From Patescibacteria group bacterium (GTDB lineage Bacteria > Patescibacteriota > Patescibacteriia > SG8-24): a stretch of DNA of 58,340 nt. The notes under the pieces were generated by a model that was not told where the DNA came from, searched no databases, and saw nothing but the letters and a program-made list of their open reading frames with translations. Every line of letters begins with the position of its first letter. Position 1 is the first letter of the stretch. The position numbers and the translations under genes were made by a program. Positions 53,289 through 58,187 of the stretch are shown piece by piece. The DNA lies in the NCBI GenBank assembly GCA_034716415.1, contig JAYEJB010000071.1, positions 1 to 58,340 of the forward strand, in the 5' to 3' direction.

Positions 53289-54179
53289 TCATCCGACGGC
53301 CTTCGCGAGCAGTTCGGCCGCACTGACCACTATCGTTCTCGCCGGCATGTCTCCTCTACCCGTTCCGACGACTGTATCCGAAAACATGATAGTCCGAAAA
53401 TTGATTCTCTCTAGCTTGCCTTTCGCGCCCTTCGATAATACGGGATGCGTAGCGCAGAGATGAAATTCACGAAAACCGTTCTTGCGCAAAAGCTTTACCG
53501 CTTCGATGACCGTTCCACCGGTATCGACCTGGTCGTCGACGATGACCGCGGTTCGTCCCGCGATACTGCCACGCAGACCCTGCGCGACGACTCCACCCCT
53601 GCGCATCCGTTTCTTGTCCACCCAGGCGACAGCCGACGCACCGGACAGCTCACCGAACTCACGCGCGCGCTTGACCGCGCCGTGATCAGGGGCGACCACG
53701 GTATGTTCGACACCACGCAATTCCCTTTCCATGCACCCGGCCATCGTCGGTACCATGTTCACCCTGACCAACGGATAACGACAATACTTATCGAGATACG
53801 GCCCATGCGGGTCGACCGAAACAAGACGGGTGACACCGACCTGCCTGAATATGCCCAGCAATGCGGCTGCCGCGACTGAATCCCCTTTCTTGACCGCACG
53901 GTCGTGTCGAGCGTACCCGAAATAGGGCAAGACGAGCGTGATATCTTTAGCGCCGTTACGTTTCAGCGTATCGACAAGCAACAGAGTCGCCAGTGCGGTA
54001 TCTGCCGGCGACTCGGTACGACCGATGACACAGACTTTACGACCGATACCCCTGACTTCCAGATGCATCTCGCCGTTCGGATAGATACCCCAGTCGGCTC
54101 GAGCACTCGCGGCCGGTTTAAGTTGCCGTTTCAACTTCCGCTCGAACGAATTAGGACTCGGTAAAGTGAAGATTTTCAT
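53289..54179 (-). CDS. prs: Ribose-phosphate pyrophosphokinase (divergent)
   Basis: YPNGE, LPYFGYARHDR, VDPH, VAPD.G, DKKR, IVDD.VDTGGT, ATHPV. Confidence 0.9.
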   Translation of the reverse strand: MKIFTLPSPNSFERKLKRQLKPAASARADWGIYPNGEMHLEVRGIGRKVCVIGRTESPADTALATLLLVDTLKRNGAKDITLVLPYFGYARHDRAVKKGDSVAAAALLGIFRQVGVTRLVSVDPHGPYLDKYCRYPLVRVNMVPTMAGCMERELRGVEHTVVAPDHGAVKRAREFGELSGASAVAWVDKKRMRRGGVVAQGLRGSIAGRTAVIVDDQVDTGGTVIEAVKLLRKNGFREFHLCATHPVLSKGAKGKLERINFRTIMFSDTVVGTGRGDMPARTIVVSAAELLAKAVG

Positions 54180-54181
54180 AA

Positions 54182-54262
54182 AAGGCGGGAAGAGCGGGAT
54201 AAGCGGGATAAGCGGGAAAAGAATTACTTCTCCCGCTTCTCCCGCTTCTGCCCCTTCTCCCG
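54182..54262. repeat. Inverted arms of 9-bp family-C microrepeats; one arm encodes the end of the phosphoribosyltransferase
   Basis: GCGGGATAA-like units versus CTTCTCCCG-like units. Confidence 0.85.
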
Positions 54263-54880
54263 TTCCAACAATTCAACCACCTCGTCATCGTTGACTTCAC
54301 CGAAATCGGAATAATGAGCACCGACCGCCCAGAACATCGTCGGTGTCTCCAGTACGATGAGTTCGTCGACGAGGTTTTCTATCGTCTTCACGGAATCAGA
54401 CGACGCCACCGGTACCGCAACCACGATGCGCTTCGGACCGGCCGCACGCACCGTCTTGATCGCGGCCATCATGGTAAAACCTGTTGCGATTCCATCGTCC
54501 ACGATGATGACGATCCGGTCGCGCATGACTCTCTCTGGCAGACCCTTCCTGTAAGCATTCATGCGACGGTTCGCCTCGACCTTCTCCTTCTCGACTATCT
54601 CTTCAAGACTCTTCGGATCATGCACCGATCGCTCCGCCTCGTTCCAGACGATATCACCCATCTCAGTGATCGCGCCGATGGCGTACTCTGGATTCGACGG
54701 CGCACCGATCTTCCTGGGCACGACGATGTCGAGCGGTAGACCGAGCCGGTCGGCGACGATGCGACCGAGGACCACACCGCCCCTAGGCAACGAAATAACG
54801 ACGCCATCCTCGACGCCCCGATACTCCTCCAGACTGTCTGCCAGCTTCTCACCGGCCTCTGACCTGTCGACAAATGACAT
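54224..54880 (-). CDS. Phosphoribosyltransferase family protein
   Basis: F.DR.EAG, LPRGG, PRKIGAP.NPE.A.GA, IVDDGIATG, VAVPV. Confidence 0.93.
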   Translation of the reverse strand: MSFVDRSEAGEKLADSLEEYRGVEDGVVISLPRGGVVLGRIVADRLGLPLDIVVPRKIGAPSNPEYAIGAITEMGDIVWNEAERSVHDPKSLEEIVEKEKVEANRRMNAYRKGLPERVMRDRIVIIVDDGIATGFTMMAAIKTVRAAGPKRIVVAVPVASSDSVKTIENLVDELIVLETPTMFWAVGAHYSDFGEVNDDEVVELLEREKGQKREKREK

Positions 54881-54955
54881 ATTCGTGTCTGTTCATACCG
54901 ATATTGTAGCACCGACAAGAAAAACCCCGTACCACACAGGGTACGGGGTCGACGA

Positions 54956-56128
54956 TCATGAACGTTTCGGACGGAAGATCCAGAGCAAGGCGGAGATCAG
55001 CACCATCAACGTCCCGTTCACGAACCAGGTGACAGCAATCAGAGTTAGATTCTCCTCGTGTCCGCTACTGAGCAGCCAGACACAGACAAGAATGACAGAA
55101 AAACCCAGACGACTGACGAACGACTGCAAGGAGCCGAACGTGGCCCGGTAACTGCTTTCGACCCGGCGCTGTACATATGTATCAAGCAACGGCCTAAACA
55201 GACCACGTCCGACCTCGTGCATGAAAGCCAGCATCAGCGGAGCGACGATCCCTGAGAAGAGACCGGTAAAAACCATTCCGACGGCAGTCATCATCAAGGC
55301 TATCAACACACCCGTCGACTCACTGGCATTGGTCCAGCCATCACGTCTCGCAAGATAGGCACCGAGCATGCTACCACCGATAATGATCAACCATACGTAC
55401 GACAATCCACTGTGTCCGGTACGGGCAGCGAAGAACGGAGCCCAGTAGTGATTGAACGACAACACCAGCCCCAACGAGCAGGCAACCACCATCGCCCAAA
55501 CCAGACCGTTCCCCTGTTTCAACACAGTGACGCTCTTATGCAGTGCATCGAACTCTGTCACCCGCTCAACAGGTTCACCGTCTCCGTTCATGAAACAGCA
55601 CGTGACCACGATCATCCCGATACCACCGATGACACTCGCCAGAATCGCCGCGCGCAGACTGTGTGCACCGATAAAGGCACCGATTACACCACCGCACAGG
55701 CAGGTCATGGACATGCAAATCGCGCTCGTAGCCAACACCTTGCGCAGACGATGGCTTTCTCCCTGTTTGGAGAGCGCATCTGTCACCCAGGCCAGCTCTG
55801 CTCCGGAAAGAAAGGCGAAAGCTACGCCCATCATGATTTCACACACCAGAGCCGACCATAAACCGTTCGCAAACGCCAGTGCTAAATGACTCAATGTGTA
55901 TACCACCGCACCGATTCGGACTGACCAAGCCCGACCTCTTCCGTCCGCTAACATGCCGGTCGGCAACTCCGCCAACACGATAGTCAGAAAGAAGACCGCG
56001 TTGATCAGCGCCACCTGCGGCAAGGTGACTCCGACACTGGTCAGATACGGCACGTATGCCGTCGACGTCAGACCCATGGCAAAACCGTTCGCTGACATGA
56101 AAAGAACGTAAACCGTTGAAGCCTTCAC
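54956..56128 (-). CDS. MFS transporter
   Basis: ~12 transmembrane helices, ELPTG.LAD..GR motif A, SGA..AW; GTG after AAGGGAGG. Confidence 0.93.
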   Translation of the reverse strand: MKASTVYVLFMSANGFAMGLTSTAYVPYLTSVGVTLPQVALINAVFFLTIVLAELPTGMLADGRGRAWSVRIGAVVYTLSHLALAFANGLWSALVCEIMMGVAFAFLSGAELAWVTDALSKQGESHRLRKVLATSAICMSMTCLCGGVIGAFIGAHSLRAAILASVIGGIGMIVVTCCFMNGDGEPVERVTEFDALHKSVTVLKQGNGLVWAMVVACSLGLVLSFNHYWAPFFAARTGHSGLSYVWLIIIGGSMLGAYLARRDGWTNASESTGVLIALMMTAVGMVFTGLFSGIVAPLMLAFMHEVGRGLFRPLLDTYVQRRVESSYRATFGSLQSFVSRLGFSVILVCVWLLSSGHEENLTLIAVTWFVNGTLMVLISALLWIFRPKRS

Positions 56129-56153
56129 TGCATCCTCCCTTGTTCAGGCCACC

Positions 56154-56176
56154 AAAAAACCCGGGGTGTTCCCGGG
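56154..56176 (-). terminator. Intrinsic terminator in the MFS 5' leader
   Basis: CCCGGG-AACAC-CCCGGG followed by six T on the minus strand, ~25 nt before the MFS start. Confidence 0.75.
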
Positions 56177-56206
56177 CCAATTTGATGTCAGAGCTACCTT
56201 TTGGGG

Positions 56207-56314
56207 CTATGCATGTGATTCAGACACCATGTGGACCGGGAACGCGAAATCCGTCGGCAGATAACCGACGTCCGACTTCGCGATGAAATTGGTCCACATT
56301 TGATGTCTTTCCAT
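56207..56314 (-). CDS. Putative leader peptide, 35 aa
   Basis: MERHQMWTNFIAKSDVGYLPTDFAFPVHMVSESHA; ATG 8 nt after the -10 box; spans the alternative helices. Confidence 0.55.
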   Translation of the reverse strand: MERHQMWTNFIAKSDVGYLPTDFAFPVHMVSESHA

Positions 56315-56322
56315 ACTTATTG

Positions 56323-56351
56323 ACGCTAGCAGGCCCCGAGCAGGCTGTCAA
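56323..56351 (-). promoter_or_regulatory. Sigma70-type promoter of the leader/MFS unit
   Basis: TTGACA-N17-TAGCGT with extended -10 TG. Confidence 0.7.
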
Positions 56352-56451
56352 CAGTAGCCGGCCGTTCTGTTCCAATGAAGACTCCCCAGGCTGAAGCCCG
56401 CGGTGTTCTGCGGAGGCGAATAAAAAATCCGGCTTAGACCGGATTCTGCTG

Positions 56452-56883
56452 TCACTGGACAGCCTTCCTGTCGCTCGGCAGGATCTTGATCTCGTCGAGC
56501 CAGACCTCGCGGATCGGTGATGTCTTGACGTGGAAGGTCTCACCCCCATGTTCAAACGAGAACTCCAGGCTCATTCCGAGCTGAATGACGGCGCTGAAAA
56601 GCGCATTGCCCCACGGATTAGACGACCCGATCAGGTAGCCTTCCACGCGTGCCTTTTCTTCTACGCCGTCTCCGAGCTTCTCTTCAATGACCCCGCCCAT
56701 CAGGAGTACATCACGCTTACCCTGCTCCAGTATGATGATGACGTACTCCGAGTACCTGGTCTTGACGGTAATCGGAATCAACCCCTCGATATCGCTGATC
56801 TGAATACCTTCATCGCCGGCATACTTATCGATGATAGCTTTCAATTCCACCGGCACCTTTTCTGTCTCTTCTTGATCTGTCAT
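56452..56883 (-). CDS. Hypothetical acidic protein (~143 aa)
   Basis: ATG after GAGGGGTGAGG; beta-rich pattern. Confidence 0.7.
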   Translation of the reverse strand: MTDQEETEKVPVELKAIIDKYAGDEGIQISDIEGLIPITVKTRYSEYVIIILEQGKRDVLLMGGVIEEKLGDGVEEKARVEGYLIGSSNPWGNALFSAVIQLGMSLEFSFEHGGETFHVKTSPIREVWLDEIKILPSDRKAVQ

Positions 56884-56998
56884 CCTCACCCCTCTGACTA
56901 TCGTCTGAAATGTACGATATTGGAGAATACCTTTTACCGCTTATCGTGTCAATCCTAGTACCAAAAAGGCGGGTCAGACCCGCCTTTTTGAATCTTAT

Positions 56999-57880
56999 CT
57001 ACTCCTCATCCCCGTCATCATCGTCTCCCGCATCGTCATCCCCATCATCGTCCCCGTCATCACCTGGCTCACCATCGTCATCGTCCGGTCCGAGCGCTCC
57101 AAGCTCCTCTTTCAATGTCTCCTTGGCCGCCTCAAGAGCCGCCTTAAAGTCATCACGAGCTGCGCTGAAAGCCTCTTTCCGTGCATCGACGAGCTCCTGA
57201 ACCAAGTCACGGTAGGATTTCACGCCATTCAACGCGTCCTTGAGTGCACCATGAGCCGCTCGTAATGCCGCATTGAACTCGTCACGGGCCGACTTCAAAT
57301 CTCCGTCCGATTCGCAAGCCGCCTTGGCCGCCGCAATTGCCGCGTCTACCGCAGCTTCAAAGTCGGCGACAGCCGCGTCCACCGCGGCCTGTCTCTCATC
57401 GACCAGACCTTCAGCACTGGCCCAGAATGCCTCAATGGCGTCATCGTAAGCCGCGCGGCGAACGTCGACAGCCGCCTGGACCGCCGCCTGGAATTCCAGA
57501 AGCGCCTGCTTACGGTCACTGTCCTCGAATTTCTCCAACAACAGATCGAAACGCTCGGTGTGGTTATCGGTGCGAGCCGTGCGGACCTCACCGAGCCGAC
57601 CGAGACGCTCGGTGTGACGTTCAGCCAACTGACTCTCACGCGTGATACGATTCTCTGACAAACGACCCTTGCCACTGGTGACCCTGCTCATCACCCGCTC
57701 GGCGAAACTGTCCAGCCTCTCACAGGCCCTTGCCTTAACTTGCTCGGGTACGTTGCCGCGACCACGATCTTCCGGCGGACCGGCCGGATCGTTATTCTGC
57801 GCCATCGCCATCGCTGGCATCATCATCTGCATAATGAGCACCGCGCTCGCGGCCGCGCTGATCGTTTTCTTGCTATTCAT
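56999..57880 (-). CDS. Secreted coiled-coil protein with Asp/Gly-rich tail
   Basis: Signal-like MNSKKTISAAASAVLI..AMA, Ala/Glu-rich helices, GDDDD-repeat C-terminus. Confidence 0.8.
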   Translation of the reverse strand: MNSKKTISAAASAVLIMQMMMPAMAMAQNNDPAGPPEDRGRGNVPEQVKARACERLDSFAERVMSRVTSGKGRLSENRITRESQLAERHTERLGRLGEVRTARTDNHTERFDLLLEKFEDSDRKQALLEFQAAVQAAVDVRRAAYDDAIEAFWASAEGLVDERQAAVDAAVADFEAAVDAAIAAAKAACESDGDLKSARDEFNAALRAAHGALKDALNGVKSYRDLVQELVDARKEAFSAARDDFKAALEAAKETLKEELGALGPDDDDGEPGDDGDDDGDDDAGDDDDGDEE

Positions 57881-58187
57881 AGGTTTCGACGGTAAATAAT
57901 TCTGTCTCGTCTTCGCCTTCCTCGAGCGCTGAAACCACGTCCGAGCCGTCTCCGGCATCGGTCTCTTCCATGGCCGCCTCGTCAAGCAGTGAATCAATGA
58001 GAGCGTCGACCTGTACGTCGACATCCTCTTCACCAGTGACGTCCATCTCGCCGCCGAGCTCGGCCACCGCCTCATCGCCGGCAGGGACTATCGGCCCGAC
58101 CTCTTCCTTGTTGGTCATCTGGAGATAGGCGACCAGCCCCACCACGATGACAATCAGCACCGGAATGATTATCTTCCATTTAGGCAT
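57873..58187 (-). CDS. Small acidic membrane-anchored protein
   Basis: N-terminal transmembrane helix, highly acidic remainder; overlaps the start of the next gene. Confidence 0.75.
   Translation of the reverse strand: MPKWKIIIPVLIVIVVGLVAYLQMTNKEEVGPIVPAGDEAVAELGGEMDVTGEEDVDVQVDALIDSLLDEAAMEETDAGDGSDVVSALEEGEDETELFTVETYE

Follow-up and report, generated by a model that had tools for sequence, protein, structure and literature searches.

The DNA immediately upstream of an MFS transporter gene in a Patescibacteria group bacterium very likely encodes a ribosome-mediated (leader-peptide) transcription attenuator controlling that gene, a reading to which we give a probability of about 0.8. The window, by which we mean the whole stretch of DNA that was analyzed, comprises 58,340 nt of contig JAYEJB010000071.1 (GCA_034716415.1), and the leader lies on its minus strand. 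The original prediction had described a promoter, an ATG opening a 35-codon ORF, three RNA segments with alternative pairings and an intrinsic terminator, and each of these parts was present on that strand where it had been placed. Two further features go beyond that account, namely a strong inner hairpin (56282–56243) and the leaderless mRNA that the position of the ATG would imply.

Reading along the minus strand, we located a −35 box, TTGACA (56346–56351), and, after a 17-nt spacer, a −10 box, TAGCGT (56323–56328), which is separated by 8 nt (CAATAAGT) from the leader ATG at 56314. In 53 homologous leaders the pentamer TTGAC recurred at a distance of 36–42 nt upstream of the ATG, and the −10 box, itself a weak match to the consensus, was kept as TAGCGT in the close relatives (L101–L106). 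A strict promoter scan called no promoter at the leader, as TAGCGT shares only 3 of its 6 positions with TATAAT and is weak under E. coli rules. Farther upstream, directly past the stop of a 145-aa gene (56452–56889), a hairpin of the form AAUCCGG-UCUAAG-CCGGAUU followed by UUUUUAUU occupies 56418–56447 of the minus strand. The terminator scan did not list this hairpin, which looks like the intrinsic terminator of the 145-aa gene; if so, the leader promoter would define an independent transcription unit. The minus strand also carries, at 56999–58075, a 358-aa ORF with no Pfam match; its N-terminal region is predicted to be signal-like, its repeats are Ala-rich and resemble coiled coils, and its C-terminus is extremely acidic (DDDGEPGDDGDDDGDDDAGDDDDGDEE).

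The leader ORF (56207–56314, minus strand) comprises 35 codons and a stop, with the predicted product MERHQMWTNFIAKSDVGYLPTDFAFPVHMVSESHA. Segment 1 (GACAUCAAAUGUGGACC; 56291–56307), the anti-antiterminator strand, covers codons 3–8 and was paired with segment 2 in the MFE structure. Segment 2 (UUCCCGGUCCACAUGGUGUC; 56223–56242) has segment 1 and segment 3 as alternative partners, and segment 3 (GACAUCAAAUUGGCCCGGGAA; 56169–56189) forms the 3′ strand of the antiterminator and includes the 5′ arm of the terminator; both assignments rest on folds and covariation. Between segments 1 and 2, and still within the ORF, lies the inner hairpin CGCGAAGUCGGACGUCGGUUAUCUGCCGACGGAUUUCGCG (56243–56282), which appeared in every fold computed and has an equivalent at the same place in relatives; we infer that it acts either as a loop closer or as an RNA polymerase pause hairpin. 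The intrinsic terminator (56154–56178) consists of GGCCCGGG-AACAC-CCCGGGTT, the 3′ arm being also given as CCCGGGUU, and a U-run, and the terminator scan matched it as GGCCCGGGAACACCCCGGGTT at 56178–56158, followed by a T-run. Downstream of it, a Shine-Dalgarno sequence, GGGAGG (56134–56139), precedes the GTG of the MFS gene at 56128. All of these features are on the minus strand.

To judge the strength of the fold, we compared the 202-nt leader with 200 dinucleotide shuffles of itself. Its MFE was −86.5 kcal/mol against −59.8 ± 4.4 kcal/mol for the shuffled sequences (z = −6.05), none of which folded as well. For the two alternative pairings of segment 2, duplex energies were −21.4 kcal/mol for 1:2 and −23.7 kcal/mol for 2:3, and the terminator duplex came to −14.1 kcal/mol. 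When the first 21 or the first 33 nt of the window leader were masked, as they would be by a ribosome on the early codons, the MFE structure flipped from the terminator to the 2:3 antiterminator, and the two were mutually exclusive, as had been claimed, segment 3 containing the 5′ arm of the terminator. The MFE structure went back to the terminator when a footprint lay close to segment 2 or was placed at the stop codon.

We then placed a ribosome footprint along the ORF by forcing 27 nt to remain unpaired at each P-site codon in turn. In this equilibrium folding model, which ignores kinetics, the predicted probability of the window terminator was 0.94 without a ribosome, 0.00 with the P site at codons 3–9 and 0.94 again from codon 11 on, which agrees with the earlier suggestion that a ribosome on the early codons would free segment 2. 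Across the family the same model gave a mean terminator probability of 0.82 without a ribosome, which dropped to its lowest point, 0.40, at codon 9 and was at least 0.8 from codon 16, so that the predicted derepression is only partial family-wide (a mean of 0.40, not 0). Shuffling codons 2–14 lowered the modeled terminator probability from 0.82 to 0.56, with the native value above the shuffled one in 53 of 63 leaders (Wilcoxon p = 2e-9), and shuffling the 5′ region of the window leader lowered it from 0.94 to 0.24. In folds of truncated transcripts, segment 2 paired with codons 5–11 in 50/63 leaders. According to these models, segment 2 is sequestered by the 5′ coding part, that is, by an anti-antiterminator inside the ORF.

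Taken as a mechanism, transcription would start at the leader ATG or within 2 nt of it, and the leader ORF would be translated from a leaderless mRNA. With no ribosome on the RNA, segment 1 (codons 3–8) would pair with segment 2, leaving segment 3 free to form the terminator, and transcription would stop about 160 nt in. A ribosome running to the stop codon would cover segment 2, and the terminator would form again. Only a ribosome held at about codons 3–10 while RNA polymerase makes segments 3 and 4 would cover segment 1 and leave segment 2 free; the 2:3 antiterminator would then form, and the MFS gene would be transcribed. The model thus predicts termination both without translation and under unimpeded translation. 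This 1:2, 2:3, 3:4 logic had been part of the original prediction, and folds, covariation and the open ORF support it in the window and across the family described below.

Searching genome contigs with the MFS alignment returned 76 loci, 75 of which we examined upstream. The same module preceded 71 of these 75 orthologous MFS genes in Patescibacteria genomes, and consisted in each case of a promoter, T-ATG, a short ORF, a UUYCCGRG-type segment, an apical hairpin, CYCGGGAA-loop-CYCGRG and a U-run. A pattern scan of metagenomes added 13 true leaders, each of them preceding a gene of that MFS family, along with 11 other matches that were unrelated terminators. In the window and in all loci, a regex scan detected no leader copy outside the regions upstream of MFS genes. 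The loci L062, L063, L059, L071 and L072 hold MFS orthologues without the leader; in its place, L062 and L063 have a promoter, then a small hairpin (CCUGCAUUUUGCAGG), and a 5′ UTR that is short and A-rich. In one subfamily (L005, L008, L010, L011, L018, L020 and L034), about 130–180 nt separate the leader terminator from the MFS start, and this gap contains a second structured stretch of about 100–130 nt with conserved motifs such as GTGCAGATGTYCTGCAAACGGTTG, which may constitute a second regulatory layer.

We used 63 of these leaders as the alignment for covariation and ORF statistics, and the terminator, the antiterminator and the apical helix all covaried. In the terminator helix, 96.1% of cells were paired, with 65 double-change cells, and 0/500 shuffles scored as high. 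The antiterminator core, UUCCCGGGU with ACCCGGGAA (UUCCCGG/CCGGGAA), had 93.7% of cells paired and 23 double-change cells, again unmatched in 500 shuffles, and variants such as UUGCCGAG with CUCGGCAA kept the pairing pattern. RNAalifold independently recovered the terminator and the antiterminator apical helix, with compensatory changes in 15 of 17 pairs. For the 1:2 helix, comparison of close relatives revealed a compensatory change, a U-A pair of the window being C-G in L102. Conservation was poor outside the three interlocking helices (36% mean column identity), and the inner hairpin and a U-rich stretch before segment 2 were conserved across leaders.

We examined the leader ORF in the same 63 sequences. 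T-ATG was invariant (63/63) at about 8 nt past the −10 box, with G at −2 in 37/63, and motifs resembling a Shine-Dalgarno sequence preceded only 4/63 leader ATGs, compared with 54/63 MFS starts. An ATG 8 nt past the −10 box with no Shine-Dalgarno sequence implies a leaderless mRNA, and from these sequence features the leader mRNA is probably leaderless or has a 5′ UTR of at most about 2 nt. The ORF was open in all 63 leaders, with a length of 26–43 codons (median 33). Among 37 non-redundant leaders, frames 1 and 2 over the same span held 1.3–1.5 stops and were stop-free in only 9/37 and 6/37, respectively, compared with 37/37 in frame 0; this comparison demonstrates computationally, at the level of sequence, that the leader ORF is kept open by selection. 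Public gene calls in L101 (276–374), L102 (2816–2914), L104 (2783–2881) and L105 (2775–2873) annotate a 32-aa ORF from an internal ATG (MWTN...) and overlook the conserved ATG that lies five codons farther upstream, nearer the promoter (MERHQ.../MDSRQ...). The only sequencing run that matched the window sequence was of brine-metagenome DNA, and no RNA run was found.

The peptide sequence is not conserved. Substitutions between close pairs were distributed 91/105/108 over the three codon positions, and the absence of a third-position bias makes the codon-position substitution test unusable as coding evidence; codon differences comprised 162 non-synonymous and 47 synonymous changes. Apart from the open frame and the composition of the N-terminal codons, the ORF bears no classical coding signature. 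The composition was frame-specific: over codons 2–10, A occupied codon position 2 in 51% and G occupied position 1 in 8%. In the same codons W, M, N, H and Y were enriched (z = 9.1, 8.3, 7.3, 4.3 and 3.9, respectively) and amino acids with four to six codons were depleted; the window leader, MERHQMWTNF..., has H, M, W, N and F in this region. Part of this bias can be accounted for by the RNA itself, as in the pairing of ACC-ACAA-GGAA with UUCC..GGGU. The window peptide has no run of a single amino acid, as had been observed before, and thus no cognate codon run in the stall region, and no single amino acid was universal across the family. We also found no conserved nascent-peptide arrest motif (no IFVI, R-L-R or +x+ pattern), and the peptides diverge freely.

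Of the other explanations for such an element, we considered first a metabolite- or ion-binding riboswitch, in which the 1:2 helix and inner hairpin would form an aptamer, ligand binding would favor the terminator, and the ORF would be incidental. Transporters are common riboswitch targets, and the gene downstream is a transporter; the strong fold (z = −6.05) and the conservation of the inner hairpin and of the U-rich stretch before segment 2 would also suit an aptamer. However, none of 4227 Rfam families matched anywhere in the window at gathering thresholds, the best sub-threshold matches being a miRNA model (E = 0.35) and Trp_leader (15.1 bits vs. a gathering score of 41), and the low identity outside the three helices (36%) means that no core resembling a ligand pocket is visible. 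A riboswitch would moreover fail to account for a T-ATG that never varies and keeps its distance from the promoter, for the open ORF in 63/63 leaders and for the frame-specific codon composition, and we regard this explanation as improbable. The same Rfam search, together with a literature search that found no paper on it, upholds the earlier impression that the leader belongs to no known family.

A second explanation is that the element is an independent small gene, encoding either a functional 35-aa protein or a trans-acting sRNA of about 160 nt, with read-through into the MFS gene being secondary. The element is indeed a complete unit with a promoter, an ORF and a terminator, relatives have the 32-aa ORF annotated by gene callers, and attenuator-derived sRNAs and trans-acting leader peptides are known, as exemplified by rnTrpL and peTrpL (PMC6614838, PMC7298713). 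A functional protein is hard to reconcile with a peptide that is not conserved (162 non-synonymous vs. 47 synonymous differences) and with a segment-2 motif, UUCCCGGGU, that is read in all three frames among leaders, giving FPGS, FPG-stop or SRV. Furthermore, in the sequences searched, the element was found only directly upstream of the MFS gene, and an antiterminator that covaries in competition with the terminator would be pointless in a stand-alone gene. We therefore consider an independent small gene very improbable, and return to attenuation of the MFS gene as the preferred reading.

The MFS transporter gene itself runs from the GTG at 56128 to 54956 on the minus strand and encodes 390 aa (Pfam MFS_1, E = 5.6e-24). 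Its orthologues align from residue 1, and its homologues are annotated as MFS transporters of Patescibacteria, Uhrbacteria or Parcubacteria. Weak similarity of the protein to tetracycline-efflux (Tet) models and to NorA suggests that it may function as a drug exporter. In the closest relatives (L101–L105), the MFS gene is followed by a Pur_DNA_glyco (3-methyladenine DNA glycosylase family) gene; L104 has PRTase and Prs genes after this intervening gene, and the others have Pur_DNA_glyco only. In the window the glycosylase gene is absent (54880–54956 region), and a PRTase gene directly follows the MFS gene. That gene (54224–54880, minus strand) encodes a 218-aa protein that has a phosphoribosyltransferase domain, fits no specific NCBIfam family and ends in a basic Lys/Arg/Glu-rich tail (..EREKGQKREKREK), and after it lies a gene for a divergent ribose-phosphate diphosphokinase (53289–54179). 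Among the genome-contig loci, PRTase never came after the MFS gene and a Prs relative did so only once. Since PRTase and Prs are thus unlinked to the MFS gene elsewhere, the leader belongs to the MFS gene alone, and we rejected the idea that it controls a salvage operon of MFS, PRTase and PRPP synthetase genes. A third explanation, that a protein or tRNA acting on segment 1 or 2 picks the helix, as in PyrR-, TRAP- or T-box-like antiterminators, is brought to mind by the PRTase-fold gene downstream in the window, PyrR being a PRTase-fold RNA-binding regulator, but is hardly credible given that the PRTase and Prs genes are unlinked to leader or MFS gene in other genomes, that Rfam gave no T-box or PyrR-site match, and that the conserved, predicted-leaderless ORF would be unexplained.

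With leader-peptide attenuation as the preferred mechanism, we considered what might slow the ribosome. Since there is neither a conserved peptide or arrest motif nor a codon run, the switch probably reads ribosome speed over the first ~10 codons and not a specific arrest peptide. Candidate signals are translation inhibitors and a shortage of charged tRNAs; the original prediction had suggested a ribosome-targeting drug or metabolite. Three more specific ideas were considered. An F-P-G-stop arrest motif was rejected: two of the three frames of UUUCCCGGG encode FPG, different leaders use all three frames, and it is the RNA that is conserved. Sensing of queuosine-tRNA through NAY codons was rejected as well, since Asp occurred 3 times vs. 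8.7 expected and W and M were the most enriched residues. Sensing of Asn-tRNA is only partly supported: Asn is enriched family-wide, but the window leader has one Asn, and many leaders have none in codons 2–10.

A broader proposal, which we put forward as speculative and on balance doubtful, is that in Patescibacteria the leader senses general translation stress without any transcription factor and switches on a drug-type MFS exporter. Here the first ten codons of a leaderless uORF, rich in amino acids that have no more than two codons each (W, M, N, H, Y), would make transit through the anti-antiterminator rate-limiting, and the trigger would be either a lack of several imported amino acids or compounds from hosts or neighbors that target the ribosome.

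The proposed switch resembles the E. coli trpL, hisL and pheL leaders (Rfam Trp_leader, RF00513) in its short leader ORF, in the mutually exclusive 1:2, 2:3 and 3:4 pairings, in the identity of 3:4 with an intrinsic terminator, and in the read-through that a ribosome stalled on segment 1 would allow. In contrast to those leaders, the window leader lacks a cognate codon run, its mRNA is predicted to be leaderless whereas theirs are led by a Shine-Dalgarno sequence, and the gene downstream appears from its sequence to be a drug-efflux-type MFS where theirs is a biosynthetic operon. With a Trp_leader score of 15.1 bits, below the gathering score of 41, it is not a sequence member of RF00513.

Leaderless leader-peptide attenuators have been described in Actinobacteria, in the Corynebacterium glutamicum ilvBNC leader (PMC11857589, PMC10272879), and mycobacteria have polycysteine leaderless sORFs (bioRxiv 10.1101/834739). 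These share with the Patescibacteria leader an ORF at the 5′ end of the transcript without a Shine-Dalgarno sequence (predicted here) and a downstream hairpin switch, but they belong to another phylum, show no sequence similarity to it, and contain repeats of the amino acid that they sense (Ile/Val/Leu, or Cys), whereas the window leader has no such run. In the 5′ leader of mycobacterial whiB7, stalling on a uORF leads to antitermination in response to antibiotics and to amino-acid/tRNA shortage, and the whiB7 regulon includes a drug-efflux MFS (PMC10274678). The whiB7 uORF is similar in showing compositional bias without sequence conservation (PMC10274678), although its bias is toward alanine, whereas here it is toward W, M, N, H and Y in codons 2–10, and whiB7 is a transcription factor that activates a regulon, whereas the present switch is placed directly at the transporter gene. 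The leaders of ermC/ermB, mef(E)/mel, Bacillus subtilis bmrB-bmrCD and E. coli toiL-topAI (PMC12121999) likewise rely on a slowed ribosome on a short uORF to remodel the RNA, as proposed here; they turn on a resistance- or efflux-type gene, and stalling occurs with very short nascent chains. Unlike them, the Patescibacteria leader has no conserved arrest motif.

Although the mechanism is a textbook one, this family of leaders, spread through uncultured Patescibacteria, seems not to have been described before. In full-text searches we came across no paper that connects leader peptides, attenuators or leaderless mRNAs with Patescibacteria, Uhrbacteria or CPR, and a literature search found no published cis-regulatory RNA element for Patescibacteria (CPR). 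These bacteria make up a large share of bacterial diversity, almost all of it uncultured, and have few recognizable regulators. The leader would imply that leaderless translation and transcription-translation coupling are used for regulation in Patescibacteria, and under the model it would mark a very widespread, uncharacterized MFS transporter as conditionally expressed when ribosomes slow. This would in turn offer a handle on the function of that transporter, which might be efflux of translation inhibitors or part of a starvation response, through an element whose small size, about 160 nt, makes it amenable to in vitro tests that need no culture of the organism.
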